A stretch of 64,000 nucleotides of DNA from assembly GCF_053078305.1 (NCBI RefSeq), contig NZ_CP166879.1, one strand, 5' to 3'. Below, in pieces: positions 9,982 through 64,000 of this stretch (positions are counted from its first letter, which is position 1; the number at the start of each line of letters is the position of its first letter). Made by a program: the position numbers and the translations under genes. A model generated the notes under the pieces. It did no database searches. It worked only from the letters and a program-made list of their open reading frames with translations, and was not told the DNA's origin.

Positions 9982-10212
9982 ACATCTGGCCACCCTGATT
10001 CCTTCCCGTAACAACTGACGCCAGACTTTACGCACATCGTATACGCACGGTATCTTTTTCTTCAGCCAGTCATCACGCTGCGCACGGGCATTGCGTTTAT
10101 CAGGATGATGTCGCTGTTGCTGACAGTGGTAATACGTTGACGGGGCAATATGCAGTTCACTGCATACCGGTCCGATCCCGTACTGCTCACGCGACTTATC
10201 CAGCAGTGGCAT
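9982..10212 (-). pseudogene. IS629 orfB, 5' 77 codons only (deletion derivative)
   Basis: MPLLDK...GIRVARC matches the IS629 OrfB N-terminus; the reading frame then runs into the inverted-repeat sequence. Confidence 0.7.
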
Positions 10213-10538
10213 TATTTTTTCCAGGGGCGGTCGAACTCCGCCTTCGCAAAATAAGTGGAAGCCTGGCGAAGGATATCGTTACTGCGGCTCAGTTCACGAT
10301 TTTCACGTTCCAGCTCTTTCAGACGCTGACGTTCAGTGGTGGTGAAACCACCATCACCGCCCCCAATATCCTGCTCATGCTGGAGTACCCAGACGTGCAG
10401 AGTCTCCGGTGTACAGCCAATCTTAGGGGCAATAGAACAAATTGCTGTCCATTGTGAGTCATATTCGCCCTGACTTTCCAGAACCATACGAACTGCCCGT
10501 TGACGGACTTCGGGGGAAAAACGTGTATTTTTAGTCAT
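10212..10538 (-). CDS. IS629 OrfA (IS3-family transposase HTH subunit), 108 aa
   Basis: MTKNTRFSPEVRQRAVRMVLESQGEYDSQW... matches recalled IS629/IS1203 OrfA. Confidence 0.8.
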   Translation of the reverse strand: MTKNTRFSPEVRQRAVRMVLESQGEYDSQWTAICSIAPKIGCTPETLHVWVLQHEQDIGGGDGGFTTTERQRLKELERENRELSRSNDILRQASTYFAKAEFDRPWKK

Positions 10539-23921: not shown

Positions 23922-24197
23922 CTATTTTTTATCTTCTTTTCTTTCTTGTAACTTTGCTTTTATCCAAATACCAATCCCTGCTAACATACCAGCCCCTCCC
24001 CCCACCTTTAAAGAATAAATAATATCTGCCCTCCAATCAAAAAATAAAACTTGAGTTTTAGAAAAAACTATCAGTCTACCAAGAATAGTACCTAACATTG
24101 CCATAAAAAAGATGCAAGCTATGCAGCGCATTATTAGTATGATAAGAATGTAAAAGTTGACACTCTTATTTATTTTTAATGGATTTATCAGCTTCAT
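23922..24197 (-). CDS. cdiI: CdiI-like immunity protein (small membrane protein), 91 aa
   Basis: Overlaps the cdiA 3' end by 32 bp; hydrophobic helices; position typical of CDI immunity genes. Function inferred from context. Confidence 0.55.
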   Translation of the reverse strand: MKLINPLKINKSVNFYILIILIMRCIACIFFMAMLGTILGRLIVFSKTQVLFFDWRADIIYSLKVGGGAGMLAGIGIWIKAKLQERKEDKK

Positions 24198-27100
24198 CTA
24201 GTGTTCCTTTTGTTACATTCCCGATAGCTTCACCAGTAATTGTTCCCCCAATATTACCAATAATATCAGATGTTCCCTCTTTGACAGTAGAGCCCATTGA
24301 CCCCGAGATGACTTTCCCTATACCGCCACCAAATACTGAACCTAATCCTGTCCCAATAACTGAATTTGTCGGATCCTCGCCTTTAATACTACTACCAATT
24401 GCCGCGCCGCTCATGTTGATAGGAGTTGAGACGATGATGCCTTTACCGGTTGTAGCTGCAGCTGTCACCCCAGCCATTATCGCATCCACATAACTGAAAG
24501 GACCTTTTCCAGCAAGCTGAGCAGCTGAGTTTACGCTGATACCAATTGCTGCATTAGTCGCCATACCTTTCACTGTTAACCCCAGTACGCTTCCTCCAAA
24601 CAACAAAGGAGCATCACCAATACTTGCATTAGATTTATGATACCCCCAGGTATTCATAATGCTTTGAGCCTTTGCCATTGCTTCAGTATCAGGGTTACGT
24701 TTTATATAGTCCTGTCCTGACAGTAACCCGGTAACAAGCTCCTGTGCCACCGCTGTACCGTACTCCTTTTCCATTTCTGAAGCATATACACGCAAGTAAG
24801 CTGCCAGTTCAGCACGTTCTGCGCTGTTTAATTGTGAAGGATCTTTATTAAATTTGGATACCAGAGCATCACTACGTTTATCTGCATTTTCCAGCTTAAT
24901 CAGCTCATTAGCAGTGGCTAATGTCTTATCGCCGTTCCTGATTTTCTCAATGGCTTTATCCAGTTTGTCAGAAGATGTCGCTCCCAGAAAGTTATTCTCA
25001 ACAGTCGTCTTACCTGACTGTGCGCCGGCTACCGCTGAAGCCCCCGAGTTGCCCACCAGACCACCGGCCAGGCCGGCAGCAACCGTTGCCAGTGTCGAGA
25101 CCGTCTGCTTCTCTGTCTCGCTCAGTTCACTCACCGGCTTACCGTACATCTGTGTGGCTATCATTCCCACCACCTCGCCGGTGGCAGCCCCTGCGGCACC
25201 GGCAAGGGCATTATTTCCCTGTGCCACCGCCAGCGCGGCATTCACAACCGCATGGGCGGCCACACGCCCCGCACCGTCCGGGGTGTTATTTTTGATTATT
25301 TCTGCAATGTACGGCGCAGCACCACCTGCCAGGGCTGCACTCAGATTACCACCGGCCAGTCCCTGTACCGCTGCCGTTGCAGCCTGTATCGCCTGCTGGT
25401 ATTTGCCTCCCGTTCCAAAACCGGAGGCTGCCATACCGTTATTGTAGGCCCGCTGTGCCACATCCTGTTCCGTGAACGGTTTTCCTGCTGCCTCAAGCTC
25501 CGCACGGGCCTGATTCAGTGCTGCCGGGTCCCGCTTCGCTTTCTCACCGGCTATCTGTCCTTCCGTTCTGGCAATATCTGCCACCTGGTTACCAATCTCA
25601 CCAATGAGTTGCGCCTGCTGCAGTCGCTGCTGCTCTTTTTCCCTGTCAAAGATGGGGGACAGCGTCTGATTTGCATGTGCTGCGTCACGGTTCAGGTCTG
25701 CCACATCCTGTTTCTGGCTCTGCGTATCCCGGATGGTGATATTCCCGGCAGACACTGCCGACTGCGTGGTACTGTCCGCATGGCCTTCATGATTTGCACC
25801 GACCAGCAGATTGTTTGCCATGTTCCCCAGGAAATTTCCAGCAACACTGCCACCGGTACTGAGCCCTGTACTCTGATGTTCCGTTTTAAAGTCGGCCCGG
25901 TTTTCAATGTCACTGAAGCCCAGTGTGCCGGTATCCAGCCTGTTTTTATCTGCCGTTGCCGTGGACGCAATCACCGCACCGTTCAGTTGCGTATGCTGTC
26001 CGGTGGTGACATCAAACCCGCCCCTGCCGGCAAAAATCCCCGTCTGCTCCTGTACACTGTCGTAGTTACTGTGCATTTTATCCCGGCTGAGGTTCACACT
26101 CGCCGAACCGCTCATGGACCCGAAAATGAAGCTGCCTCCGGCGCTGGCATTCTGCTGCTTACTGTCATAACGGTCACTGTCCTGCTCACTGGTCAGTGTC
26201 AGATGACGACCGGCATCCACTTTCACCGTTTCACCGCCAGCCTGCGCGCCGGTAAGCGTGGTGTCCCGCCCGCTGATAATGGTCAGCCGGTTTCCCGCAT
26301 CCACCGTGGTTTCTGTATGGGTGGTACCGTTGCCTTTTTCACTGCCCTTACCCTGGTTTGCGCTGGCTGAAACACTGATACCCCAGCCTCCGGAGCCCAC
26401 ACCAACACCGACACCCACGCTGCCACCACTGGATGTGTTCTTTCCTTCCAGCTTTGACGTGTTTTCTGCTGATACCAGATTCACGTCACGGTTTGCCTGC
26501 AGCAGAACGTTGTTCCCGGCCTTTATCTGACTGCCCTGTATCGTCAGGTCACCATCCACGCCCTTCACGCCGGAGCCGGTGGCCTGAATACTGAGGTTAT
26601 TACCTGCGGTCAGTGTACTGCCCTTCGCCACCGTCTGCTCTGACTGCTGTTCTGATTTCGAAGACTGGCTGCCGTAAGAGAGGCTGATGCCCACCGTGTT
26701 ATTATTTCCGGCATCGGCTCCCTGCGCGTCTGCCAGTCGTCCGGCCTGCACGGCCTGAGCCCCCGAGAGCGCGGCCTTCACCCCCTGCAGGGCTTCAAGC
26801 CGGCTGTTTCCGGCAGATTTCGCCGCCTGTACGGTCTCCACCGTCGTATTCAGGGCGCTGCCCGCTGTGCCGGACAGGGCAAGCGTCAGACCGGAGGTTT
26901 TCTGCTCCACCGTATGTGTCTGTACATGCTGGTCTGTGGCGGCGGTAATGCTGACCTCCTTACCGCTGAGTGCCATGTCCCTGCCGGCAATCAGGTCAGA
27001 GCCGTTGACGGTCAACCGGTTACCTGCCTGAAGGGAAACATCACCGTGAACACTCCCCACCGTGCTGCCTTTCTGTGTGGTGTCTGTTGCGGTGTCCGTG

Positions 27101-30100
27101 ACTTTCAGACTCTGGCTGCCCATGCTGAATCCCACACCTCCGGAGCTCATCAGCCCAGATTTTTTCTCCTGTTTCAGGTGTGTTTCACGGTTGCTTTCTG
27201 TCAGCGTGCCGATACTCAGGTCATTTCCGGCAGCCAGGGAGACACGGTTATCCCCGGCCACACTGCTGCCCGTGACGTTCAGATTATGTCCGGCACTGAT
27301 ACTGACCGTATCCCCGTTCAGTTCACTGCCCGTCATGGTCCGGCGGTCAGTGACATCATGCGTGGTTGTGGTGGTTTTCGATAACATCCCGCTGCTGCCG
27401 GTCACTTTATGGTATTCATCCAGCGAGCGGGTATTCTGTGCACCGGTCAGCGTCACGTCATGACCTGCCATCAGGGCCAGGCCTTTCTGAGCTGACAGCG
27501 ATGCCGCCTGTGACGTCATATCCCGTCCGGCGGTCAGCGTGACATCACCGTTACCGGCAAGCGTGCTGCCCGTACTCTGTGTGACGCCCTGCGACAGACG
27601 ATTATTTTTATCCCAGATAATATTGTCCTGCGCGGAAGTGGTCACAGTGGAAAGCGTCATATCCCTGCCCGCACTGAGTTGCGTCAGGCTGTCCTTACCC
27701 TGATTCACCACCGTTGCAGCCGTCAGATTCATATCCCGTCCGGCCTGCAGCACCAGTCTTCCCTGGTCGTTCTGCACATACACGCCGGCCACACTGTCGA
27801 TACTGGTACGTTCAAAATGGTTCTGTCCGGCGTCGCGCTGTGCCGTACGGGTGGTGGTGGTCAGACTGATATCCCGTCCGGCCATCGCCAGCAGGCTGTC
27901 CGTGGCCTGCAGCAGCCCGCCGGTACTGTTAATATCCGTCCGGGCCGTCAGGCTGACATTTGCTCCCTGAATGGAGCCGGCCTGGTTGTGAATGTTTTCT
28001 GCACTGAGCTGCACGGTCTGCTTCCCGGCCAGTTTACCGCTGTTAAACAGGTCACCATCCAGCTTCATCACCATGTCCCTGCCGGCAATCAGCGCACCGG
28101 CGCTGTTCACATCACCGGGTTTTACACGGGCATACACCTGAGGTACCTGAACCGTCTGCGTGCTGCCGTCCGGCAGTGTCACCGTGGTGTTAACCAGCCA
28201 GACAATATCACCGGTCAGTAACGCCATCTGCTCAGCAGTCAGCGCCACACCTGGTGTCAGGTTGTATTGCTTACCAAATGCAATACCCGCATCCATTAAC
28301 GCCTTAAACTGCTCTTCATCATTACTGTATCCGTCCAGGTACCGTTGCCCGGTCAGAGCGACAACCTGCTCACGAATCAGACGCTGTTCGTAAAAACCAT
28401 CCCCCAGGCGTTTGAGCATGTTATCCCCGTTCTGAGAAAACGCCTTCTGCATGTAATCACTGCCCAGCCACGTCTTCTGGTTCGTAAAACGCGGGTCCGT
28501 TTCAACCAGATATGGCACATTCACTGCCGGGTTTGTTTTAAACAGGCTGCTGTCCGGCAGACGGGTATCCGGCCCGGCAACATGGATACTGCCCTGAGGT
28601 GCGCTGACTTCAAACTGCTGCCCCGGCAACAGAATGACCGGTTCACCGGCAGACACCACCGGGCGAAGCGGTATCCGGTCAGTAGCGGCTACTGCCGCAT
28701 CCACATTTCCGGCCTGTCCTGTCTGTACATCCGTTCCCTGTGGCTTCAGAGGAGAAAGCGTGACCTGGCTGCCCTGAATCTGTCCGTGGCTGGTGAGCTC
28801 TCCCGGCTTCAGCGTAATGCTCTGAATTACAGTGGGCGGAGTGTACTGAGAGGTTTTCTCCCCCTGCTTATCCTTTCCTTTTTTCCTGATACGGTAATAA
28901 TACGTGGATGTTCCTGAGTCCGTAACATGCCGCTCGCCACTGACACTGACATTTTCCACGCTTCCTGACGGAATGGTCAGCAGGCCGCCTGCAACAACCT
29001 GACTCTTATCATTAAGCAGTTTGTCTGCCACAATCGTCATGCCGGCACCGGACAGAATTTTTCCCGGGTCGGAGTCTTTTACCCGGGTTTCTTCCACGGT
29101 ACGGGTGTAATCATACTGCGTGAATTTATCTCTGGCGCCTTCCGGTGTATGCAGTTTTTTCAGTGAGTTACTGGAATCGTTATCCACATAAACGCCCGGT
29201 TCACCGGCGCTCCAGCGTTTATCTGAGCCGCTGAGCTGATACTCAGTCACCTTTTCCGTGGAAACCACCACGCGCTCCGTGGTGAAATGGTCATTGACGT
29301 TATTGATTTGTCCGGCACTCAGTACCAGATATCCGGCGGCTTCAATAGTGGCACTGTGATTATTCAGTACACCGGCTTTCCCCGTGGCGGCACCATTCGC
29401 ATCCAGCATGCCACCAGTATGCATATCACCTGCACTGTAAATCAGGCTGTGCGTCCGGTTATTCAGGGTCTGTACCCCTAAGTCCACACGCTCACGCCCG
29501 GCCAGCGTCGCCGCCACGCCATTTTCTTCCAGATTATTAAATGTGGCAGCGCTGACACCAACAGCATCGCCGTAGATTCGCCCGGTACCGGAATTCGTCA
29601 GGGTGTTCGCCTGAAGATGCGTATATTTCCCGTCAATCAGCCCACGGTTCAGCAGTGTGTCCGTCACGTTAAGCCAGGTCTGCCCGGCACTGATTTCACC
29701 TTTCTCTGTGTTTTCAAGGCGGATGCTGTTCAGGTCAAGCCGGCTGCCTGCCAGCAGGCTGCCGGTATTAGAGACATCGCCATTAACGGAAAGCGTAAGG
29801 TTTCCGTTCGCAATAGTCTGACCACTGTTGCTGAACGTTGTGTTACTTTTCAGCGTCATATCGCCCAGCGAAAGCAGTTTCCCGTCACCACCGAGCTGAC
29901 CGGCATCCACAGATACTGACTGCCCGGCCTTAACCACGCCGTCACGGTTCGAAAACGCCAGCTGACGGCCACTGACAGACAATGTCGCGCCGGAAGAGAG
30001 GACGCCGTCATTATTACTGAGCGTCCTGTCTGCCATAACCGTAAGCGCCCTGTCTGCCAGAATACTGCCCTCCTGGTTATCAAGGTCCTGCGTCGTGATG

Positions 30101-33100
30101 TGTATTGTCTGCGCTTCCAGCCCCTGACCGGTATTCTGCGTGTGGCGATTGATAAACTGCAGGGCGTTCAGCGTAATGGCGGAACCACTGCGAATCAGAC
30201 CAGAGACGTTGTCCACAACGCCCCGTACACTGTTGAGCAACATGTCGCCCACAGACTGTATTTGTCCGTGGCTGTTCTGCAGACCTCCCGTATGCAGACG
30301 GAGTTCACCTTCACTGACCAGCCGGCCCCCCTCACGGTTATCCAGCGAGGTGGTGCTCAGGTCAGCTGTCGTTTTCGCCCCCACGGTCCCGCCCCGGTTA
30401 TCCATTGCTCCGGTACTGACAGTCAGTTCCTGCAGGCTGTTCAGCGTACCGCGTCTGTTATCCAGCGTCTGGCCTGCGGTATTAATGCTGATACCCCTCC
30501 CCTGAATAAGACCGGACTGATTGTTCAGCGCCTGGCTGTTCCAGCCGAGCAGACCGTTTGCCACCATCTGACCGGATGTATTGTTAACCACGCCTGCAGT
30601 CAGGGACAGAGCATCTCCCGACAAAAGCACACCGGCAGTGCTGTCCAGTGTGCCGGCATTCAGCGTCATCGGACCCTGACTGATAACCCCGCCCCGGTCA
30701 CCACTATTACGGTTACTCAGTGTGTCAGCACGGAGATTCAGCGATGCACCGCTCTGTATCAGGCCGCCGGCATCGTTGATGATATCCGTCGAGGAAAGTG
30801 TCAGTGACTGCTGTGCCACCAGTCTGCCGCCCTGATTATCAAACCGTGTGACATCCAGCCTGCTGTTACCGTTGCTGACCACCGTCCCCTGCTGATTTTC
30901 CAGCACACTCAGGTGCGTATTCAGGTCCCCGCCGGCGGCAAGCGCCCCTTCCTGATTACTGACATCACCACCACTCAGCAACATATCCGTCCCGGCCTTC
31001 AGTGCGCCTTTCTGGTTCATCAGCGTACCTGACGATATCTGTAATGACGTCTGACTCCCCAGCACGCCCTGACGGTTATCGAGCGTTCCGGCGTTCAGGG
31101 TCATATCCTTCTGACCCGCCATAAATCCCTGCTGGTTATTCAGCATACCGGCCCGCACTGTCAGGGTACCGGCGCTGCTGATACCACCCCGTGTTTTCGT
31201 GTTCCGGTTACTGAGTACCCCGTCCTGTACATCCAGCGTCATGTCACTGCCGGACTGAATCAGACCATCATCAGAGACCAGTTCGCTGCCTGACACAGAC
31301 AGCGTTTTCTGTGAAAGCAGTCTGCCGGACGTATTATCCAGCGCACCATCCAGCGTCACAGACAGCCCGTCAGCCACCACCGTACCCTGGTGGTTATTCA
31401 GATTCCCTGCCGAAATATCCAGCCTGCCGGCGGACTCCATTCGTCCCTCAGTATTGCTGACAGCCTGCTGTGTTTTTATCCTGCCCGTTCCGGCAGCAGC
31501 TGAAATCAGTCCGTTGTCGTTATTCAGCGCCTGTGTATTAATCAGGATGTCACGGCTGGCAAGCAGACGTCCCTGCTGGTTATCCACGGCGCCGGTTGTC
31601 CTCACCTGCAGACTGCCTGACTGCGCCGCCTGCACTTTCCCCCTGCGATTATCAAGGCTCAGTGCATCCAGACGCACCGCGCCATTTGCCGCAAACAGCC
31701 CTTCCCGGTTATCCACGCTTCCCGGCAGACTCAGCGAAAAATCCCCTGTTCCCGTCTGAGTCAGACTGCCTTTACGATTTGACAGGCTTTGTGCCGATAT
31801 CTGCAGTGTGTCGGCATTTATCGTGCCACCATTATTGCTGAAGTGCCCGACAGTCCGGGCGGAAAGCGTACCGGCACTCAGTTGCGCATTCTGTGTGGAC
31901 AGATTTCCACTGGTTGCATCCAGCTCAGTATGTTGTCCCTGTATCCGGCTGTTGCTTAAATCCAGCCCCTGCCCCTTCAGTTGCATGTCCCCACCGGACA
32001 GAACCTGTCCGTGTGCCGCCAGTTCGCCGGTGGTACTGACAGTCAGGTTGCCCGCTGCCGCCAGACGTCCGTCATCTTTCACCCCGGCGGCCAGCAGACT
32101 CCGCTCACCGCCGGTCAGACGCGCTGTCTGAATCCGGGTGTTGCGACGTGATGCCACAGAGCCTGTATGGGTGAAGACACCATCACTCTGTATCTGCGTA
32201 TCCTGCCCCGCATAAACAGAACCACTGTTATGCAGCTCCCGGGTTGTCGCCAGATGCACATCCGTTTTCGCACTGATACTGCCACTGTTTTCAATACGTC
32301 CGTCAGCCGTCAGGGTAACCGCCCCTGCCTGTGCACCAATATGACCGGCGTTACGAACACCCACCCCCGTTTCCGTACCGACAAGGCGAATTTTTCCGGC
32401 ATACATTCCGCCAAGACTGGCCACATCCAGTGCCATCTGAGGCTGTGAAGAGACATCACCGGTCTTTTTCTCAATCTGCCCGTGCGCGATATCCACATTG
32501 TTACGTCCTGTGGTCACTTTCAGATCCTGCGCCCAGATACCCGCATTAATCTTCACAGACCGGGCAATGATATCGGTATAATCCGTGCGCGAGGCATCCA
32601 TCCCTTTGCCCGTAACCTGAATCTCACCACGTTCAACACTGAATCCGGTCAGACTGCCGTTTTTCATCTGCGGCTGCCCCGTGGTCAGCGTGGCCCGGTT
32701 CGCATTAATAAAACCGCACCCGTCGCAACTGATGCCGGCCGGGTTCGCAATCACCACCTGCGCCTTTTTACCGGCAACCTCAACAAAACCGTTCAACTGG
32801 CTGGGATTGCGACTGTTCACTTCATTAAGAATGATTCTGGCCTCTCCCTTAGCCAGCCACGGGTTCCCGGCCACCATGCCACCCAGTTGAGTCTGCACAT
32901 TGTTATGGGCATTATTCAGAATGACGCCCTGGTTACCGACGTCGAACTGGCTGTATGCGTTATGTGAAACCCCGCCGGCAGAAGGCGTCTGAATATTCAC
33001 CTGCGGAATGCCGCTGGCCGTCTGCGTAATCGTGGGCTGCTGATACCCTGGTGCGCCATGGTCTGCGACAATGCCTGCAGCACTGACAGAATGCACCATC

Positions 33101-33279
33101 CCCGAAGCCAGCCACAAAGAGAATGCAAGCGGCGTGACACGGCAGATACGTTGCCTGTGTGGATATCCTGTGCGGGAGGACAGTGATGTACCGGCGCGAC
33201 CGGAACGGGCAATATCTGCCACCACCATCAGCATTCCCCGGGCTTTGTTAAAAATAATGCGGTAACAATTTCTGTTCAT
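24166..33279 (-). CDS. cdiA: CdiA contact-dependent inhibition exoprotein (TpsA/filamentous haemagglutinin family), 3037 aa, with VENN-delimited C-terminal toxin
   Basis: Extended signal peptide (YRIIFNKARG...VVADIARSG), TPS secretion domain (NPAGISCDGCGFINANRATLTTG), long haemagglutinin-type repeats, VENN motif 274 aa before the C-terminus. Confidence 0.85.
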   Translation of the reverse strand: MNRNCYRIIFNKARGMLMVVADIARSGRAGTSLSSRTGYPHRQRICRVTPLAFSLWLASGMVHSVSAAGIVADHGAPGYQQPTITQTASGIPQVNIQTPSAGGVSHNAYSQFDVGNQGVILNNAHNNVQTQLGGMVAGNPWLAKGEARIILNEVNSRNPSQLNGFVEVAGKKAQVVIANPAGISCDGCGFINANRATLTTGQPQMKNGSLTGFSVERGEIQVTGKGMDASRTDYTDIIARSVKINAGIWAQDLKVTTGRNNVDIAHGQIEKKTGDVSSQPQMALDVASLGGMYAGKIRLVGTETGVGVRNAGHIGAQAGAVTLTADGRIENSGSISAKTDVHLATTRELHNSGSVYAGQDTQIQSDGVFTHTGSVASRRNTRIQTARLTGGERSLLAAGVKDDGRLAAAGNLTVSTTGELAAHGQVLSGGDMQLKGQGLDLSNSRIQGQHTELDATSGNLSTQNAQLSAGTLSARTVGHFSNNGGTINADTLQISAQSLSNRKGSLTQTGTGDFSLSLPGSVDNREGLFAANGAVRLDALSLDNRRGKVQAAQSGSLQVRTTGAVDNQQGRLLASRDILINTQALNNDNGLISAAAGTGRIKTQQAVSNTEGRMESAGRLDISAGNLNNHQGTVVADGLSVTLDGALDNTSGRLLSQKTLSVSGSELVSDDGLIQSGSDMTLDVQDGVLSNRNTKTRGGISSAGTLTVRAGMLNNQQGFMAGQKDMTLNAGTLDNRQGVLGSQTSLQISSGTLMNQKGALKAGTDMLLSGGDVSNQEGALAAGGDLNTHLSVLENQQGTVVSNGNSRLDVTRFDNQGGRLVAQQSLTLSSTDIINDAGGLIQSGASLNLRADTLSNRNSGDRGGVISQGPMTLNAGTLDSTAGVLLSGDALSLTAGVVNNTSGQMVANGLLGWNSQALNNQSGLIQGRGISINTAGQTLDNRRGTLNSLQELTVSTGAMDNRGGTVGAKTTADLSTTSLDNREGGRLVSEGELRLHTGGLQNSHGQIQSVGDMLLNSVRGVVDNVSGLIRSGSAITLNALQFINRHTQNTGQGLEAQTIHITTQDLDNQEGSILADRALTVMADRTLSNNDGVLSSGATLSVSGRQLAFSNRDGVVKAGQSVSVDAGQLGGDGKLLSLGDMTLKSNTTFSNSGQTIANGNLTLSVNGDVSNTGSLLAGSRLDLNSIRLENTEKGEISAGQTWLNVTDTLLNRGLIDGKYTHLQANTLTNSGTGRIYGDAVGVSAATFNNLEENGVAATLAGRERVDLGVQTLNNRTHSLIYSAGDMHTGGMLDANGAATGKAGVLNNHSATIEAAGYLVLSAGQINNVNDHFTTERVVVSTEKVTEYQLSGSDKRWSAGEPGVYVDNDSSNSLKKLHTPEGARDKFTQYDYTRTVEETRVKDSDPGKILSGAGMTIVADKLLNDKSQVVAGGLLTIPSGSVENVSVSGERHVTDSGTSTYYYRIRKKGKDKQGEKTSQYTPPTVIQSITLKPGELTSHGQIQGSQVTLSPLKPQGTDVQTGQAGNVDAAVAATDRIPLRPVVSAGEPVILLPGQQFEVSAPQGSIHVAGPDTRLPDSSLFKTNPAVNVPYLVETDPRFTNQKTWLGSDYMQKAFSQNGDNMLKRLGDGFYEQRLIREQVVALTGQRYLDGYSNDEEQFKALMDAGIAFGKQYNLTPGVALTAEQMALLTGDIVWLVNTTVTLPDGSTQTVQVPQVYARVKPGDVNSAGALIAGRDMVMKLDGDLFNSGKLAGKQTVQLSAENIHNQAGSIQGANVSLTARTDINSTGGLLQATDSLLAMAGRDISLTTTTRTAQRDAGQNHFERTSIDSVAGVYVQNDQGRLVLQAGRDMNLTAATVVNQGKDSLTQLSAGRDMTLSTVTTSAQDNIIWDKNNRLSQGVTQSTGSTLAGNGDVTLTAGRDMTSQAASLSAQKGLALMAGHDVTLTGAQNTRSLDEYHKVTGSSGMLSKTTTTTHDVTDRRTMTGSELNGDTVSISAGHNLNVTGSSVAGDNRVSLAAGNDLSIGTLTESNRETHLKQEKKSGLMSSGGVGFSMGSQSLKVTDTATDTTQKGSTVGSVHGDVSLQAGNRLTVNGSDLIAGRDMALSGKEVSITAATDQHVQTHTVEQKTSGLTLALSGTAGSALNTTVETVQAAKSAGNSRLEALQGVKAALSGAQAVQAGRLADAQGADAGNNNTVGISLSYGSQSSKSEQQSEQTVAKGSTLTAGNNLSIQATGSGVKGVDGDLTIQGSQIKAGNNVLLQANRDVNLVSAENTSKLEGKNTSSGGSVGVGVGVGSGGWGISVSASANQGKGSEKGNGTTHTETTVDAGNRLTIISGRDTTLTGAQAGGETVKVDAGRHLTLTSEQDSDRYDSKQQNASAGGSFIFGSMSGSASVNLSRDKMHSNYDSVQEQTGIFAGRGGFDVTTGQHTQLNGAVIASTATADKNRLDTGTLGFSDIENRADFKTEHQSTGLSTGGSVAGNFLGNMANNLLVGANHEGHADSTTQSAVSAGNITIRDTQSQKQDVADLNRDAAHANQTLSPIFDREKEQQRLQQAQLIGEIGNQVADIARTEGQIAGEKAKRDPAALNQARAELEAAGKPFTEQDVAQRAYNNGMAASGFGTGGKYQQAIQAATAAVQGLAGGNLSAALAGGAAPYIAEIIKNNTPDGAGRVAAHAVVNAALAVAQGNNALAGAAGAATGEVVGMIATQMYGKPVSELSETEKQTVSTLATVAAGLAGGLVGNSGASAVAGAQSGKTTVENNFLGATSSDKLDKAIEKIRNGDKTLATANELIKLENADKRSDALVSKFNKDPSQLNSAERAELAAYLRVYASEMEKEYGTAVAQELVTGLLSGQDYIKRNPDTEAMAKAQSIMNTWGYHKSNASIGDAPLLFGGSVLGLTVKGMATNAAIGISVNSAAQLAGKGPFSYVDAIMAGVTAAATTGKGIIVSTPINMSGAAIGSSIKGEDPTNSVIGTGLGSVFGGGIGKVISGSMGSTVKEGTSDIIGNIGGTITGEAIGNVTKGTLDEADKSIKNK

Positions 33280-33294
33280 TCTGATAAACCTGAC

Positions 33295-33822
33295 TTATCT
33301 CTCCGGCACATCCACAGCAAGCGGGTGCTGCACACGCCACTGGCGCGCCTCTTCACGACTGACCTGTGCACCCCGGAAATTCATCACCCGTAACCCGGTC
33401 TGCTGCCCACGGTGGTACAGCGAACGCCAGCACAGACGGGGAAAAATATCCTGCCGGACAAGACGACTCATATCCGGAGTGTGTCCAAAAGGGGCAACCC
33501 AGTCACAGACCCACATCCGGTCGCCGCTGTTCCAGTCCGACTGAGGCATGAGAATTGCCGGCTGCGTAAGATAACGCGCCTCTGCCTCCGGGCTGAGCCA
33601 GGCCTGGCTCATGAAGAAAACCGGTCGCCCCTGCTCTGTTGCCACCACATACTGTCGGTGCTTAATCACCGGCAGCAGCAGGTCCGGCAGGGTATGCAGT
33701 GGCGCATCACGATGCAGGGGGGAGTGCATCCACAACCAGACGGCCGCCCCCAGGACTTCCGCCTCATTGACCGGCTCACCGGAATACAGGGGACTCAGAA
33801 CGTCATATTTCCCGTTACGCAT
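33295..33822 (-). CDS. cdiC: HlyC-family toxin-activating lysine acyltransferase (CdiC-like), 175 aa
   Basis: HlyC-like blocks WLWMHSPLHRDAP and SGDRMWVCDWVAPFG; sits between cdiB and cdiA. Confidence 0.7.
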   Translation of the reverse strand: MRNGKYDVLSPLYSGEPVNEAEVLGAAVWLWMHSPLHRDAPLHTLPDLLLPVIKHRQYVVATEQGRPVFFMSQAWLSPEAEARYLTQPAILMPQSDWNSGDRMWVCDWVAPFGHTPDMSRLVRQDIFPRLCWRSLYHRGQQTGLRVMNFRGAQVSREEARQWRVQHPLAVDVPER

Positions 33823-33831
33823 GAAACTTTC

Positions 33832-35571
33832 TCAGAAATCCCGGAACAGATTAAAACCGGCTGTCACATCACTCGTCATAAAACCCGCCGGCTTTGAAAA
33901 CGGACGACCGATGAAAACGTCATAATCCGTACTGAACAGTTGCCCCCTCAGCCCCACAACACCACCGGCCAGATGACGTCCCACCAGATATTCACTGCCG
34001 GCTCCCCCCACCTCGCCGTAATCCATTCCCAGATATAACGCCTGCTCCGGCAGTGGCGTACGCCAGGCCAGGTCGTTGCGGATATACCAGCCGTTACTGG
34101 CATTCAGCGTTCGCTCCCCGTCAAAACCACGAACCGTCCAGCGGTTACCGATGGCAAACTGTTCCTGTGGGGTCAGCGGGGTATTGCTCAGCTGGCGCTG
34201 ATACCGGAAGGAATAACTGAAGGGCTGCTCTGCCAGTGTAAAGGGCAGATTAAAGGATGCATTCATCTGCAGGATCTTACTGAGCGCCGTTGCCTCACCG
34301 AAGATTTCCTCCGGTGCCGGCTGTGCACCAAACCAGCGGGTTCCCCGTTGCCAGCTGACACCAGCATCCAGTGTGGCCTGAGAAATATAATGACGGTGCT
34401 GCAGCCCAAGTCGCCAGGCCGCTGTCTGCCGGCGCTGCACCTGGATTTCCGTATCATTAATGTAGTTACGCGACCTGCGGGCCTGAACATCGTAAGTCAG
34501 CACCGTTTTCTGCGTCCCGTTACGATGCAGTACCCGGCTCAGCTGCATGCCCAGATTCTGACTCTCGCCACTGTACTGGTAATCCTCAACCGCACCAGCT
34601 ACCGTCTGATGGTAATCGTAATCACTGGCGGTGACGGAAAACTGCCAGTAACCGAAAGGCACAGAGTAATGGGCCGTGTAGTTTTTACTGCCCTTACCCC
34701 CGTAATGTGGAAAATTATGGGTGGCAGAAACATACAGCAGGTCACTCAGGGAAAAAGGATTATCCAGAGAAAATGTTATACCACCGAGATAACGCCCTGT
34801 GCTGCGGGTACCTGAATCATCAAGCGAAAACCCCAGTCGCCAGTATTTATCCTGTTTACGGGTAATAAGAATATCACTTTCCCCTGGCTGCTCACCGGGC
34901 ACAATTTCCATATCAGCCTGCACACCCGGCAGTCGTTGCATATTCTCCAGCCCCTGCTCAATGTCCCGTAAATCCAGCAGAGAACCTTCGTGTGCCGGGA
35001 ATGAGGAATACAACTGAATATAGTCATCACTGTCCGGTGTCAGACGCACATGTCGCACAACACCGGGAATAATAACCAGCCGGAGGATACCGCTTTTTAA
35101 ATCCTGCGAAGGTGCCAGAACACGGGTGGTGACATAACCATGATCGACCAGACGGTTCTGCAATGTACTCATCAGCAGATTAATTCCTTTCGCCCCCAGG
35201 CAATGCCCGACCGCCCCGTTGGCGATTTTTTGTAAAGGCAGCCAGTGTGGTAACGCATCAGCCCCCTTCAGTTCCGTCTGTTTAATCTGAAAACAGGGCG
35301 TTTCAACAGGAAAATTAATCTTATGGGCAAAAGAGCCAGGTGCAGAAAGGCGAACATCAGGGGCTGAAGGCGTCAGTTGTTGCTCAAGGGCTTCCTGACG
35401 CTGCTGCTGAATGATAAATGTATCCTCTCCACTACGCCGGATATCCGCTGCCTGAAGAGATAAAGGCGATAGTAAAACAGACATCAGTGTCAGTGACAGC
35501 AAGGACGGACAGCGCCGGAATACGCTTTGTTCCTCAGCCCTCTCGTTCCTGCAACATAATTTTCCAGTCAA
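33832..35571 (-). CDS. cdiB: CdiB two-partner-secretion outer-membrane transporter (TpsB/ShlB/FhaC family), 579 aa
   Basis: Signal peptide, POTRA-like region, beta-barrel with C-terminal aromatic residue; immediately upstream of cdiC-cdiA. Confidence 0.8.
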
Positions 35572-36159
35572 ACGAAAAACCTTTTATTCATGCCATACCA
35601 ACAATCACCAGCCTCCTGACGATACCTCCCACCATGTTTTGCAGTGGTACGCTACCGCCCTTCCGGTATTTACCCACACCAACCGGTACCAGAATGCTGA
35701 GTAACAAATCCGTTCAGAATTGACTTAATTTTGATCATTATAGAATAATGATCTGAGCGACAGCAATATGACAGATTTATCGATCGATATAACACAAATG
35801 AACAGATCTTTATTCTGCCGAATATCGCAAAAACAGCATATCGCAAAACTTATAACCATAATTAATGGAAAAGTGCAGAAAATTATTCCACTGAATGCTT
35901 TTAATACAGTTGGTTAGCTAAAAAAATATCATTTTTTGATTTCAGTCATTGAAAATTGCAATGCGTGACGATTCAACAGCATTTAAGTGAGTTTCAGGAT
36001 ATGGGAAGGACATGAAAGGAGGAGCGTAATAAAACACACAGGAAGAAGGGGAAAATGTTTCGTAAAAACAGAAAATTAACAGCGCACATCAGGAAACTCA
36101 GTCTCCTGATTCAGTGCTACCACATGAAAATTTAGTTAACTGTTACCGTACTAAAATTT

Positions 36160-36351
36160 ATGTCAGAAGATGTTCCATTACCGAAAGTCAATCAGCGATA
36201 CAAAGACGATCATGGTGCGCTTGTCACCGTGACCAGTGTTGAGGAAACCCGGGTGGTGTTTATGCGGGAGGGCTATCCGCATCCCTGCATGCGACCGATG
36301 TACAACTTTCTGGGAAAATTCAAACCCGAAGCTCGGGAAGAAACAGAATAA
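36160..36351 (+). CDS. Hypothetical small protein, 63 aa
   Basis: ORF only; weak ribosome-binding site. Confidence 0.25.
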   Translation: MSEDVPLPKVNQRYKDDHGALVTVTSVEETRVVFMREGYPHPCMRPMYNFLGKFKPEAREETE

Positions 36352-42502: not shown

Positions 42503-43294
42503 ATGACAACACGTATAACTTTCAATATGACCAGTGATGAGACGCTGCGAATTGTGGATGAGTACTGTCATACCCACAAACTTTCGCGCTCTAAGGTAAT
42601 CGACGCATTACTCAGCGCCACAGCACCTGTCCTTAACGATATTAACTGTTATTATCAACTTGCAGGCAAACTGCAGTCACGCTTATTAAATGGAGTGTAT
42701 CAACGGGATCTTCCTCACAAACGCAATGTCGTCAGTGCAGAGAAGTATTGTCTGGAAATCTGGGAAAACAAACTTTTCACCAAAAGAATCCTGGAGTTTG
42801 ACAGTTCAAATGGTGTTCTATACGCGCTGAAACATAAAAGACACTATCGCCGGGATAAGATGATTGGACGGGTTGAAAGCCGGCGTATCAAAGACATTTG
42901 CGAATACCAGATGCAACTGTCCGGGGAGAAGGCAAAATATGCCTGTTTTATTTATATTGAAAGAACAATATACAATCACGATAATCCATCCGGTGAAACA
43001 CCTGTAAAAGCGGCTGTTGGTAATGCAGTCATCCTGCTGGCAAAAGACGTGATATATGACGAGTACTTTTTTGATCTGCGGCAGTCATTTTTCGTGAGCG
43101 TTAAAGATTTGATGGCCTCTGGCGCAAAAGGTATTCCGGAGACACAGAAATATCCGGACGTTTATTGCTGGATCCCGCTTTTCTCCATAAATTCCGGCGT
43201 GGTCATTACCCCGGTCTATAAAATTGATCCCCGGAAACCCGTAACGGTAAAAAAACCGGATCAGATCACTGTTGTTTGTAATTACAGAGAATAA
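42503..43294 (+). CDS. Hypothetical protein, 263 aa, low-GC
   Basis: Long ORF preceded by a very AT-rich region carrying TTACAG-type repeats; no motif recognised. Confidence 0.5.
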   Translation: MTTRITFNMTSDETLRIVDEYCHTHKLSRSKVIDALLSATAPVLNDINCYYQLAGKLQSRLLNGVYQRDLPHKRNVVSAEKYCLEIWENKLFTKRILEFDSSNGVLYALKHKRHYRRDKMIGRVESRRIKDICEYQMQLSGEKAKYACFIYIERTIYNHDNPSGETPVKAAVGNAVILLAKDVIYDEYFFDLRQSFFVSVKDLMASGAKGIPETQKYPDVYCWIPLFSINSGVVITPVYKIDPRKPVTVKKPDQITVVCNYRE

Positions 43295-48123: not shown

Positions 48124-48241
48124 ACACTCTGCCAGGAAAATGCCTGATTACATTGCGTTAACCAACTGAAAACATGACACAAACACCTCATGCTCCTCCT
48201 GTTTCTCTTGCGTGACCGCCTTGCAATCAATAGAATAAAAC

Positions 48242-48277
48242 GATCGATAAAACAGATATCGATCGTTACTATCGATC
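48242..48277. promoter_or_regulatory. Three closely spaced GATC (Dam) sites in the agn43 upstream region: candidate OxyR/Dam phase-variation switch
   Basis: GATC at 48242, 48261 and 48274 within cgatcgataaaacagatatcgatcgttactatcgatcgtt, about 220 bp upstream of the agn43 ATG. Confidence 0.65.
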
Positions 48278-48494
48278 GTTTATAGTGGTTAATGGTCTGC
48301 GAAAAGGCAGTTGAATCTCTTCATCATGCAGAACGGAATTGCACAAAACGGACTGATACTTCTCTGGCGGATGAGAGAGGGGAAGCATTTATGTCCGGGA
48401 AAAACCACTGTATCTGACCATGCTGTTTTGTACCTGCCGGTATCCACATTTGTGGGTACCGGCTTTTTTATTCACCCTCTGTAAGGAAAAGCTG

Positions 48495-51400
48495 ATGAAA
48501 CGACATCTGAACACCAGCTACAGGCTGGTATGGAATCACATTACGGGCACCCTGGTGGTGGCCTCCGAACTGGCCCGCTCACGGGGAAAACGCGCCGGTG
48601 TGGCGGTTGCTCTGTCTCTTGCTACTGTCACGTCAGTCCCGGCACTGGCTGCTGACACGGTTGTTCAGGCAGGAGAAACCGTGAATGGCGGAACACTGGT
48701 AAACCATGACAACCAGTTTGTATCCGGAACAGCTGATGGCGTGACTGTCAGTACCGGGCTTGAGCTGGGGCCGGACAGTGACGAAAACACCGGCGGGCAA
48801 TGGATAAAAGCGGGTGGCACAGGCAGAAACACCACTGTCACCGCAAATGGTCGTCAGATTGTGCAGGCAGGAGGAACTGCCAGTGATACGGTTATTCGTG
48901 ACGGCGGGGGACAGAGCCTGAACGGGCTGGCGGTGAACACCACGCTGAATAACAGAGGCGAGCAGTGGGTTCATGAGGGCGGGGTTGCCACCGGTACAAT
49001 TATCAACCGCGACGGTTACCAGAGCGTTAAAAGTGGCGGGCTGGCAACAGGAACCATCATCAACACCGGCGCAGAAGGCGGCCCGGATTCTGACAACTCG
49101 TACACGGGTCAGAAGGTCCAGGGAACAGCAGAATCCACCACCATCAACAAAAATGGACGGCAGATTATCTTATTTTCCGGGATAGCCCGTGACACTCTCA
49201 TTTACGCAGGTGGTGACCAGTCGGTACACGGAAGGGCCCTGAATACCACACTGAATGGCGGTTACCAGTATGTGCACAAGGACGGACTTGCGCTGAACAC
49301 GGTAATTAACGAGGGGGGCTGGCAGGTTGTTAAGGCAGGTGGTGCTGTCGGTAACACCACCATAAATCAGAACGGTGAACTGAGAGTACATGCCGGCGGG
49401 GAAGCAACTGCAGTCACCCAGAACACGGGCGGTGCACTGGTTACCAGTACGGCTGCAACCGTTACCGGCATAAACCGCCTGGGAGCATTCTCCGTTGTGG
49501 CGGGTAAGGCTGATAATGTCGTACTGGAAAATGGCGGACGTCTGGATGTGCTGAGCGGACACACAGCCACTAATACCCGTGTGGATGATGGCGGAACGCT
49601 GGATGTCCGCAACGGTGGTGCCGCCACCACCGTATCCATGGGGAATGGCGGTGTACTGCTGGCCGATTCCGGGGCCGCTGTCAGTGGTACCCGGAGCGAC
49701 GGAAAGGCATTCAGTATCGGAGGCGGTCAGGCGGATGCCCTGATGCTGGAAAAAGGCAGTTCCTTCACACTGAACGCCGGTGATACGGCCACGGATACCA
49801 CGGTAAATGGCGGACTGTTCACCGCCAGAGGGGGCTCGCTGGCGGGCACCACCACGCTGAATAACGGTGCCACGCTTACCCTTTCCGGGAAAACGGTGAA
49901 TAACGATACCCTGACCATCCATGAAGGTGATGCACTCCTGCAGGGAGGCGCTCTTACCGGTAACGGCAGGGTGGAAAAATCAGGAAGTGGCACACTCACT
50001 GTCAGCAACACCACACTCATCCAGAAAACCGTCAACCTGAATGAAGGCACGCTGACGCTGAACGACAGTACCGTCACCACGGATGTCATCGCTCAGCGCG
50101 GCACGGCCCTGAAGCTGACCGGCAGCACAGTGCTGAACGGTGCCATTGACCCCACGAATGTCACCCTGACATCCGGTGCCACCTGGAATATCCCCGATAA
50201 CGCCACGGTGCAGTCGGTGGTGGATGACCTCAGCCATGCCGGACAGATTCATTTCACCTCCACCCGCACAGGGAAGTTCGTACCGGCAACCCTGAAAGTG
50301 AAAAACCTGAACGGGCAGAATGGCACCATCAGCCTGCGTGTACGCCCGGATATGGCACAGAACAATGCTGACAGACTGGTCATTGACGGCGGCAGGGCAA
50401 CCGGAAAAACCATCCTGAACATGGTGAACGCCGGCAACAGTGCGTCGGGGCTGGCGACCAGCGGTAAGGGTATTCAGGTGGTGGAAGCCATTAACGGTGC
50501 CACCACGGAGGAAGGGGCCTTTGTCCAGGGGAACAGGCTGCAGGCCGGGGCCTTTAACTACTCCCTCAACCGGGACAGTGATGAGAGCTGGTATCTGCGC
50601 AGTGAAAATGCTTATCGTGCAGAAGTCCCCCTGTATGCCTCCATGCTGACACAGGCAATGGACTATGACCGGATTCTGGCAGGCTCCCGCAGCCATCAGA
50701 CCGGTGTAAACGGTGAAAATAACAGCGTCCGTCTCAGCATTCAGGGCGGCCATCTCGGTCACGATAACAACGGCGGTATTGTCCGTGGGGCCACGCCGGA
50801 AAGCAGCGGCAGCTATGGCTTCGTCCGCCTGGAGGGTGACCTGCTGAGAACAGAGGTTGCCGGTATGTCTCTGACGACAGGGGTGTATGGTGCTGCAGGC
50901 CATTCTTCCGTTGATGTTAAGAATGATGACGGCTCCCGTGCCGGCACGGTCCGGGATGATGCCGGCAGTCTGGGCGGATACCTGAATCTGGTACACAACG
51001 CCTCCGGCCTGTGGGCTGACATTGTGGCCCAGGGAACCCGCCACAGCATGAAAGCGTCATCGGACAATAACGACTTCCGCGCCCGGGGCTGGGGCTGGCT
51101 GGGCTCACTGGAAACCGGTCTGCCCTTCAGTATCACTGACAATCTGATGCTGGAGCCGCAACTGCAGTACACCTGGCAGGGACTCTCCCTGGATGACGGC
51201 CAGGATAACGCCGGTTATGTGAAGTTCGGGCATGGCAGTGCACAACATGTGCGTGCCGGTTTCCGTCTGGGCAGCCACAACGATATGACCTTTGGTGAAG
51301 GCACCTCATCCCGTGACACCCTGCGCGGCAGTGCCAAACACAGTGTGCGTGAACTGCCGGTGAACTGGTGGGTACAGCCTTCTGTTATCCGCACCTTCAG

Positions 51401-51617
51401 CTCCCGGGGGGACATGAGCATGGGTACAGCCGCAGCCGGCAGTAACATGACGTTCTCACCGTCACAGAATGGTACGTCACTGGACCTGCAGGCCGGACTG
51501 GAAGCCCGTGTCCGGGAAAATATCACCCTGGGCGTTCAGGCTGGTTATGTCCACAGCGTCAGCGGCAGCAGCGCTGAAGGCTATAACGGTCAGGCCACGC
51601 TGAATGTGACCTTCTGA
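48495..51617 (+). CDS. flu: Antigen 43 autotransporter adhesin, about 1040 aa
   Basis: N-terminus MKRHLNTSYRLVWNHITGTLVVASELARSRG (extended signal peptide), passenger repeats, C-terminal beta-barrel ending ...NVTF. Confidence 0.85.
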   Translation: MKRHLNTSYRLVWNHITGTLVVASELARSRGKRAGVAVALSLATVTSVPALAADTVVQAGETVNGGTLVNHDNQFVSGTADGVTVSTGLELGPDSDENTGGQWIKAGGTGRNTTVTANGRQIVQAGGTASDTVIRDGGGQSLNGLAVNTTLNNRGEQWVHEGGVATGTIINRDGYQSVKSGGLATGTIINTGAEGGPDSDNSYTGQKVQGTAESTTINKNGRQIILFSGIARDTLIYAGGDQSVHGRALNTTLNGGYQYVHKDGLALNTVINEGGWQVVKAGGAVGNTTINQNGELRVHAGGEATAVTQNTGGALVTSTAATVTGINRLGAFSVVAGKADNVVLENGGRLDVLSGHTATNTRVDDGGTLDVRNGGAATTVSMGNGGVLLADSGAAVSGTRSDGKAFSIGGGQADALMLEKGSSFTLNAGDTATDTTVNGGLFTARGGSLAGTTTLNNGATLTLSGKTVNNDTLTIHEGDALLQGGALTGNGRVEKSGSGTLTVSNTTLIQKTVNLNEGTLTLNDSTVTTDVIAQRGTALKLTGSTVLNGAIDPTNVTLTSGATWNIPDNATVQSVVDDLSHAGQIHFTSTRTGKFVPATLKVKNLNGQNGTISLRVRPDMAQNNADRLVIDGGRATGKTILNMVNAGNSASGLATSGKGIQVVEAINGATTEEGAFVQGNRLQAGAFNYSLNRDSDESWYLRSENAYRAEVPLYASMLTQAMDYDRILAGSRSHQTGVNGENNSVRLSIQGGHLGHDNNGGIVRGATPESSGSYGFVRLEGDLLRTEVAGMSLTTGVYGAAGHSSVDVKNDDGSRAGTVRDDAGSLGGYLNLVHNASGLWADIVAQGTRHSMKASSDNNDFRARGWGWLGSLETGLPFSITDNLMLEPQLQYTWQGLSLDDGQDNAGYVKFGHGSAQHVRAGFRLGSHNDMTFGEGTSSRDTLRGSAKHSVRELPVNWWVQPSVIRTFSSRGDMSMGTAAAGSNMTFSPSQNGTSLDLQAGLEARVRENITLGVQAGYVHSVSGSSAEGYNGQATLNVTF

Positions 51618-63435: not shown

Positions 63436-64000
63436 ATGAGTAAAGTGAAAAGTATCACCCGTGAATCCTGGATCCTGAGCACTTTCCCGGAGTGGGGTAG
63501 CTGGTTGAATGAAGAAATTGAACAAGAGCAGGTAGCTCCTGGTACATTCGCGATGTGGTGGCTCGGTTGTACCGGGATCTGGCTGAAATCGGAAGGCGGT
63601 ACCAACGTCTGCGTCGATTTTTGGTGCGGTACTGGCAAACAAAGTCACGGTAACCCGCTGATGAAACAGGGTCACCAGATGCAGCGTATGGCTGGCGTGA
63701 AAAAACTGCAGCCGAACCTGCGCACTACGCCGTTTGTTCTTGATCCATTTGCTATTCGCCAGATCGACGCCGTCCTGGCGACTCACGATCACAACGATCA
63801 TATCGACGTAAACGTCGCTGCTGCCGTGATGCAGAACTGCGCTGATGACGTACCGTTTATCGGACCGAAAACCTGCGTGGATTTATGGATCGGCTGGGGC
63901 GTGCCGAAAGAACGTTGCATCGTGGTTAAACCGGGCGACGTGGTGAAAGTCAAAGACATTGAAATTCATGCGCTTGACGCCTTCGACCGTACTGCACTGA
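63436..64000 (+). CDS. ulaG: L-ascorbate-6-phosphate lactonase (metallo-beta-lactamase fold), 5' partial, runs off the window
   Basis: [23 protein letters not shown]...; HDHNDH-type metal motif; divergent from ulaA as in the known operon layout. Confidence 0.75.

Follow-up and report, generated by a model that had tools for sequence, protein, structure and literature searches.

The 64,000-nucleotide stretch of DNA analysed here (contig NZ_CP166879.1 of assembly GCF_053078305.1; hereafter the window) carries a contact-dependent growth inhibition (CDI) locus, and we examined the intergenic region in front of its first gene, cdiB. The window is Escherichia coli DNA: 721 bp around the motifs described below are 100% identical to several chromosomes of Shiga toxin-producing E. 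coli (STEC). The genes follow the order of a class IV cdiBCAI operon, with cdiB first, then cdiC, which encodes an HlyC-family acyltransferase, and then cdiA. Because all three are on the minus strand, the interval of interest lies upstream of cdiB, with its motifs 249-364 bp upstream of the annotated cdiB ATG (35484), and a divergently transcribed DUF4222 gene lies on its other side (Table 1). On the basis of sequence comparisons, this interval is probably the control region of the class IV-type cdiBCAI operon, in which two known regulatory modules have been joined: a promoter of the kind that drives a type VI secretion system (T6SS) and a leader of the kind that precedes the alpha-haemolysin genes.

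An inverted repeat, a GATC-containing palindrome and tandem direct repeats had been pointed out in this interval by the initial annotation, which proposed them as candidate operators or methylation-sensitive sites through which the expression of CDI is controlled. The perfect 9-bp inverted repeat is present as described (GATCATTAT at 35733-35741, a loop of AGA, and ATAATGATC at 35745-35753), as is the palindrome TATCGATCGATA at 35778-35789. Both copies of the direct repeat ATATCGCAAAA are also present (35822-35832 and 35838-35848), but they are not strictly tandem, because they lie 16 bp apart from start to start with a 5-bp spacer, ACAGC. To gauge what chance would yield, the 675-bp intergenic region was shuffled 2000 times with its dinucleotides preserved. 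Inverted repeats whose arms reached 9 bp or more, with a loop no longer than 6, arose in 2.5% of the shuffles, and direct repeats of 11 bp or longer at a period not exceeding 30 arose in 0.7%, while palindromes with arms of at least 6, like the 12-mer TATCGATCGATA, were common (71%). The strongest signal was the clustering of GATC sites, four of which fall within 76 bp (35733, 35750, 35782 and 35805), an arrangement found in 0.15% of the shuffles. Stretches of 100 bp with four GATC sites occur three times in the whole 64 kb, and the other two, at 43165-43270 and 63740-63800, are both within the coding sequence of open reading frames (ORFs).

The inverted repeat coincides with a predicted promoter. 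In a position-weight scan TTGCTG-18-TATAAT scored 10.2, compared to 5.9 for the next candidate on the minus strand, making it by far the best there, and we predict that it is a sigma-70 promoter directed at cdiB, with transcription starting near 35730. A stock promoter scan had returned no cdiB-directed promoter, because the -35 hexamer matches at only 3 of 6 positions. G+C content across the locus reaches its low point in the promoter region, at 31%. A candidate high-affinity H-NS motif at 35783..35774 (TCGATAAATC, 9/10 to tCGATAAATT) was dropped, since such near-matches are as frequent in the window as expected (4 observed, 4.1 expected). On the plus strand, a promoter-like sequence at 35720-35749 (TTGACT-18-AATAAT or TTGACT-15-TAGAAT) faces the DUF4222 gene and overlaps the cdiB promoter within the palindrome.

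The segment from 35719 to 36220 is, at the level of sequence, homologous to the published 'sci1 promoter' fragment (Psci1) of enteroaggregative E. coli (EAEC), a segment linked to the T6SS gene tssB and characterised by Brunet et al. 2011 (PMC3145626). The distal primer used to clone sci1 matches the window at 24 of 25 positions (36195-36219), and identity to tssB-linked copies is 73-82% over 35719-36159. As a stand-in for the published EAEC sequence we used strain AST81, which matches the EAEC primers at 25/25 and 27/27 positions, carries the Fur boxes almost perfectly and is 77.7% identical to the window. The window's counterpart of the proximal Fur box, F1, is the top-scoring Fur match in the intergenic region (13/19 to the consensus), and the flanked 25-mer TCC-TATAATGATCAAAATTAAA-TCA (Bfur2 in Table S1), which represents the EAEC proximal box over the -10 and bound Fur in the Fur titration assay and in electrophoretic mobility shift assays (PMC3145626), is matched at 23 of 25 positions. 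The second box, F2, is less well preserved, with 14/19 positions shared with EAEC F2 and 19/25 with the oligonucleotide AGT-CCTGATTATTTGCATTATA-TCG. Three of the GATC sites (35733, 35750 and 35782; offsets 0, 17 and 49) correspond to EAEC positions 500, 483 and 451, which lie in BclI, BglII/Hpy188I and PvuI/BspDI sites, respectively (Figure S1 of PMC3145626); the BclI, PvuI, BspDI and Hpy188I sites are also present in the window. We refer to these as G1, G2 and G3. Thus the general idea that this interval holds operator and methylation-sensitive sites finds backing in its homology to a dissected promoter that responds to Fur and Dam.

Several properties of Psci1 bear directly on what the window's promoter may do. 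In EAEC, Fur occupies both boxes and excludes RNA polymerase, and F1 alone is enough for Fur binding and for competition with the polymerase (PMC3145626). Fur shields GATC-I from Dam in vitro and in vivo, and methylation of GATC-I in turn lowers the affinity of Fur (PMC3145626). Under iron limitation sci1 forms reversible, heritable ON and OFF subpopulations, with F2 and G3 as key determinants of this bistability (PMC13262931, PLoS Biol 2026). The window shares with Psci1 the -10 box, F1 (18/19), the three GATC offsets, the divergent DUF4222 gene and the presence of an interbacterial weapon downstream. It differs in that the operon is cdiBCAI rather than tssB onward, in that a leader of ~245 nt with an ops (operon polarity suppressor) element stands in place of the 63-bp T6SS leader, in its more degenerate F2, in having ATAATGATC in the promoter spacer, which completes a perfect dyad with half of F1, and in a fourth GATC that is also seen in some T6SS-linked copies. 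Judged by sequence, the promoter has the features of the Psci1 family, with F2 uncertain.

Table 1. Genes and predicted regulatory features of the cdiBCAI control region (positions in the window)
Feature	Position	Strand	Remarks
cdiA	24166..33279	-	3037 aa; PT-VENN pre-toxin domain
cdiC	33295..33822	-	HlyC-family lysine acyltransferase; Pfam HlyC, E = 6e-32
cdiB	33832..35502	-	First gene of the operon; Pfam ShlB, POTRA_2, POTRA_3; start is the annotated ATG 35484 or UUG 35502
ops element GGCGGTAGCGTA	35648..35659	-	Putative; non-template strand of the leader, ~+72 to +83, between promoter and cdiB
JUMPstart-like leader segment	35648..35699	-	Shared with the hlyCABD leader; ~79% identical upstream of hlyC
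Fur box F1 homologue TATAATGATCAAAATTAAG	35724..35742	-	Overlaps -10; contains G1; 18/19 to the EAEC Fur-binding 19-mer
Inverted repeat	35733..35753		Spans -10 box, most of F1, and Dam sites G1 and G2
Dam site G1	35733..35736		In BclI site TGATCA (35732-35737), within F1, just 3' of -10; corresponds to EAEC GATC-I
-10 hexamer TATAAT	35737..35742	-	Perfect; left arm and loop of the inverted repeat; counterpart of the putative Psci1 -10 (PMC3145626)
Dam site G2	35750..35753		Promoter spacer, end of right arm, 17 bp from G1; overlaps Hpy188I site
-35 hexamer TTGCTG	35761..35766	-	Predicted; 18-bp spacer
Palindrome TATCGATCGATA	35778..35789		Contains Dam site G3 (35782-35785) with PvuI and ClaI/BspDI sites; upstream of -35, beside F2; 32 bp from G2
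Fur box F2 homologue TCTGTTCATTTGTGTTATA	35788..35806	-	Degenerate; aligned to EAEC F2 CCTGATTATTTGCATTATA
Fourth GATC (G4)	35805..35808		In BglII site AGATCT (35804-35809); distal edge of F2 homologue; absent from EAEC 17-2
Direct repeat ATATCGCAAAA-ACAGC-ATATCGCAAAA	35822..35848		~-92 to -118 from the predicted start; outside what both modules explain
DUF4222 gene	36160..36351	+	Pfam DUF4222; divergent from cdiB; backbone partner of the shared intergenic module

To determine how widely this region is distributed, we searched 5426 complete E. coli genomes with a BLAST search set for distant matches. Homologous sequence was found in 1722, of which 1265 have the full cdi-type leader. The copies fall into types according to what lies downstream. 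Those of cdi type match over the full length at 84-100% identity, always between cdiB (or a remnant of it) and the divergent DUF4222 gene, and are found for instance in CFT073, O157:H7, O104:H4 and sequence type 69 (ST69). In the T6SS type the match starts abruptly at 35719-35721 and reaches the DUF4222 gene with 73-82% identity, directly upstream of tssB. A third type, limited to 35651-35754 (~79% identity), precedes the hlyC gene of hlyCABD, both on chromosomes and on plasmids. The same DUF4222-linked segment is also found on IncF (incompatibility group F) plasmids beside stcE-etp, and the DUF4222 gene adjoins the homologous intergenic region in all contexts examined. The DUF4222 gene and its upstream intergenic sequence thus form a recurrent junction (for example on plasmid CP099096.1, 5001-5664), with cdiBCAI, the T6SS genes from tssB onward, insertion sequence (IS) elements or stcE-etp as the cargo on the other side. 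When species-representative genomes were scanned with a 19-nt core, only Escherichia albertii and unrelated AT-rich matches were recovered, and at that stringency the module appears confined to Escherichia.

In an alignment of nine cdi- and T6SS-type sequences (A2), 43% of columns are invariant, and a 15-nt stretch, TTTTGATCATTATAG, forms the longest unbroken invariant run and covers the -10 box, F1 and G1. This run is present in all 15 copies (nine cdi-type and six T6SS-type) that were compared site by site. G2 and G3 are each kept at exact spacing in 13 of the 15, and the fourth GATC is found in six. The -35 hexamer varies with type, being TTGCTG or TTGCCG in the cdi-type copies and TTGAGA or TTGATG in the T6SS-type copies. 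The symmetry of the inverted repeat does not follow the same pattern: the left arm is invariant in 15/15 copies, whereas the right arm ATAATGATC is found in 9/9 cdi-type copies and also in the hly copies, but in 0/6 of T6SS type. Since the right arm is limited to the cdi and hly types, and since the hly copies have lost G1, the dyad is not the conserved unit. The second most conserved intergenic block among the cdi- and T6SS-type copies lies at 35877-35916, ~150-185 bp upstream of the predicted start; within it, the run CTTTTAATA (35898-35906) is invariant.

Between the promoter and cdiB lies the second module. The 12-nt element GGCGGTAGCGTA is the only ops-like match in the 64 kb and agrees with ops GGCGGTAGnnTG at 11 of 12 positions, with A for G at position 12. 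This element lies inside the interval singled out by the initial annotation, where it went unnoticed, as did the nature of the promoter as a shared module. The A12 variant is common to the window's lineage and O104:H4 strain 2011C-3493, and the consensus G is found in most other cdi-type copies. An ops with A12 is bound by RfaH at c1882, and kpsM also has A12 (PMC9765446). For the substitution G12C, the pause at U11 is lost and recruitment of RfaH in vitro is kept. The window's leader resembles that of hlyCABD over ~105 bp at ~79% identity, including ops and the -10 region, and differs from it in that the hly copies are without G1. The leader of c4518 in CFT073, at the head of the cryptic c4518-c4511 locus, is a direct orthologue, ~95% identical, with a 12-nt ops on the non-template strand (4304090-4304101). 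The locus is one of eight with an RfaH signal in chromatin immunoprecipitation sequencing, a signal that appeared here only when hns and stpA were both mutated (Hustmyer et al. 2022, PMC9765446). The AT-rich character of the window's promoter is consistent with the H-NS silencing of this orthologue and is shared with the RfaH/ops leaders of hlyCABD and c4518, and the promoter is likely H-NS-bound. Unlike in CFT073, where cdiB is a remnant, cdiB, cdiC and cdiA are intact in the window, and the window's ops has A12. The leader RNA folded no better than its shuffles (z = -1.2), giving no sign of a special structure; through an imperfect 24-nt inverted repeat (35526-35549 and 35685-35708, 79% complementary), the beginning of the leader could base-pair with sequence just upstream of cdiB.

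In the window cdiB is a single ORF of 579 aa, and in many other genomes it is split or truncated. Its start is ambiguous: the frame is open back to TTG 35571, and the ATG at 35484 chosen by the Prokaryotic Genome Annotation Pipeline (PGAP) gives no signal peptide. Halvorsen et al. (PMC8510554) proposed that cdiB begins at a UUG lying 18 nt upstream of its annotated start, which corresponds to 35502 here. At the other end of the operon, the C-terminus of CdiA (24169-25401) contains PT-VENN and no toxin domain recognised by Pfam; this toxin differs from the Ntox25 of the STEC4 locus and from the toxin of strain 2014C-3097. The promoter of 2014C-3097 is identical to the window's despite the other CdiA toxin.

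The STEC4 locus provides a functional result for this region. The primer used to clone cdiBCAI-STEC4 matches the window exactly at 36109..36087, so that the cloned locus begins at 36109, and deletion of the predicted promoter in this cloned class IV locus led to the loss of inhibition (Halvorsen et al. 2021, PMC8510554). The loss of inhibition upon promoter deletion argues that the native elements upstream of cdi are functional. Regulation of cdiBCAI by Fur, Dam and RfaH is likely, as inferred from the homologies described above. In the mechanism that we propose, the first module (35719 rightward) would act as a sci1-type promoter, with F1 over the -10 box, G1 in F1, G2 in the spacer, and G3 beside the weaker F2. 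When iron is plentiful, iron-loaded Fur would sit on F1 (and F2), block RNA polymerase and shield G1 from Dam. When iron is scarce, Fur would leave, Dam would methylate the sites, and methylation would reduce the re-binding of Fur. The ON state would then be inherited until replication and iron restore the OFF state, and ON and OFF cells could coexist. In the second module (35648-35720), the ops leader held in common with hlyCABD, RNA polymerase would pause at ops and load RfaH, which would carry transcription through the 12-kb, H-NS-prone cdi operon.

We propose more tentatively, and at a strength somewhat short of probable, that the first module is a portable bistable Fur/Dam cassette tied to the DUF4222 island gene, re-used before both T6SS-1 and class IV CDI and found in a related version before alpha-haemolysin, with the ops leader fused to it in the cdi version. 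In many STEC and commensal E. coli, CDI would then be deployed only in an iron-starved, epigenetically chosen subpopulation with RfaH. The perfect dyad that is specific to cdi places G1 and G2 in symmetric sequences resembling Fur half-sites and could, on this reading, retune the ratio of ON to OFF cells. Both Psci1 and the RfaH/ops leaders were already known, and what is new is the placement of a known switch before a different weapon.

The direct repeat falls outside what either module explains. The ATATCGCAAAA pair may be two sites at which a further factor binds upstream of the promoter, for example a nucleoid protein or an activator, which we regard as possible though rather doubtful. As noted above, a repeat of this length is rare in shuffled sequence, and a two-unit form, ATAT(C/T)G(C/T)AAAA with a 16-bp period, can be recognised in most cdi- and T6SS-type copies; the T6SS strain 100117 even has a different exact pair, ATATTGCAAAA twice. 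However, an exact ATATCGCAAAA pair is confined to the window's lineage, most homologues have 1-3 differences in the second unit, and the units are absent from the 300081/E. albertii type and from hly. Of every 20 columns in the repeat only 8-10 are invariant, which does not exceed the regional mean, and thus its conservation does not rise above that of its flanks, which counts against the role as a control site that had been suggested for it. No known motif was matched by eye, no systematic scan having been run, and the available parts of the EAEC studies assign the repeat no function (PMC3145626, PMC13262931).

Several observations weigh against regulation by Fur, Dam and RfaH as proposed here. 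Matches to the Fur consensus of at least 13/19 are not rare (21 in the 64 kb), which makes homology, and not the strength of the motif, the basis of the Fur claim. By hand count the F2 homologue agrees with the consensus at only 8/19 positions, and in EAEC bistability depends on F2 more than on the other box. The leader scores 18.2 bits against the Rfam JUMPstart model (RF01707; gathering threshold 35, E = 0.55); the ends of the model align, and the score falls short of the threshold owing to an internal spacer of 32 nt in place of 18. Plasmid-borne cdiBCAI-STEC4 is active in lysogeny broth (LB), an iron-replete medium (PMC8510554), and repression is therefore not tight under those conditions. 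In many genomes only remnants of cdiB lie behind the promoter, and conservation there may reflect recent common descent and not selection. Finally, our literature searches found no paper in which CdiA or cdiB is connected with RfaH, Fur or Dam.

A rival reading is that the interval is inherited but idle: remnants of sci1 type would have been carried along when a cdi or hly leader recombined next to them, and cdiBCAI would be constitutive or silenced by H-NS only. The degenerate F2, the activity of the STEC4 clone in LB (PMC8510554) and the number of copies that precede dead cdiB genes would all fit such a history, as would the CFT073 orthologue, which is silent in the wild type and comes to light only in the hns stpA double mutant (PMC9765446). 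Likewise, the cdi-type copies differ from each other by only ~5%, so their conservation says little. We nevertheless consider this unlikely, as the stretch with F1, the -10 box and G1 is the most conserved 15 nt among copies that are otherwise 20-27% diverged, and G2 and G3 have each been kept at exact spacing in 13/15. In addition, F1 alone sufficed in EAEC for Fur binding and for competition with RNA polymerase (PMC3145626).

It is much less probable that the 9-bp inverted repeat serves as the operator of another dimeric regulator, such as a helix-turn-helix protein of the island or the DUF4222 product, rather than of Fur. The dyad is perfect in 9/9 cdi-type copies, helix-turn-helix regulators and Hha-family proteins are encoded nearby on the islands, and the plus-strand TTGACT-18-AATAAT that overlaps the repeat is an equally good promoter-like sequence, but only the window and O157 lineages have its -35, TTGACT, in intact form. 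The dyad is also not conserved as a unit, since T6SS-type copies keep the left arm only and hly-type copies the right arm only, and each arm already has an explanation, the left as -10/F1/G1 and the right as G2.

Least credible is that the region works as a Dam phase-variation switch of the classical kind, as at agn43 (with OxyR) or pap (with Lrp): although a GATC cluster does lie upstream of a surface-protein operon and the best OxyR-consensus score there is 12/20, compared to 13/20 at the agn43 site in the window, the OxyR scan is non-discriminating (47 sites of at least 12 in the 64 kb), and the GATC sites are spaced 17, 32 and 23 bp apart as in Psci1, not by the 102 bp that separates those of pap. 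The proposed Fur/Dam switch does resemble the Dam/OxyR switch of agn43 in having a GATC cluster over a repressor site at the promoter of a surface protein, with methylation competing against repressor binding, and differs from it in the repressor, in the spacing, in the lack of sequence homology and in that the sci1 type is also iron-gated. A further point against a switch of the agn43 or pap type is that a transposon screen for regulators in EAEC yielded only fur (PMC3145626).

A region that looks like a classical agn43 Dam/OxyR phase-variation region is found elsewhere in the window, at 48240-48290, where AACGATCGATAAAACAGATATCGATCGTTACTATCGATCG, with its three GATC sites, precedes an Ag43-like autotransporter ORF (48420-51617; ESPR, AIDA and Autotransporter domains). 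If this is true, the island has two Dam-sensitive switches. The Rfam family IS102 RNA matches 48240-48476, and an ALIL pseudoknot at 10141-10257 (RF01497, 107 bits) is the frameshift element of an IS3-family transposase.

The regulation of CDI in E. coli is poorly understood, and most experiments have been performed on a constitutive system or on plasmid clones. If the promoter described here behaves like Psci1, class IV CDI would be iron-gated, heritably heterogeneous and RfaH-dependent, and strains that have T6SS-1 as well would regulate the two together. This would explain the apparent silence of such loci in rich medium. It would also mean that one regulatory cassette has been exchanged between weapon operons at a fixed island junction. 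Overall, these comparisons make the regulation of a widespread class of E. coli CDI directly testable.

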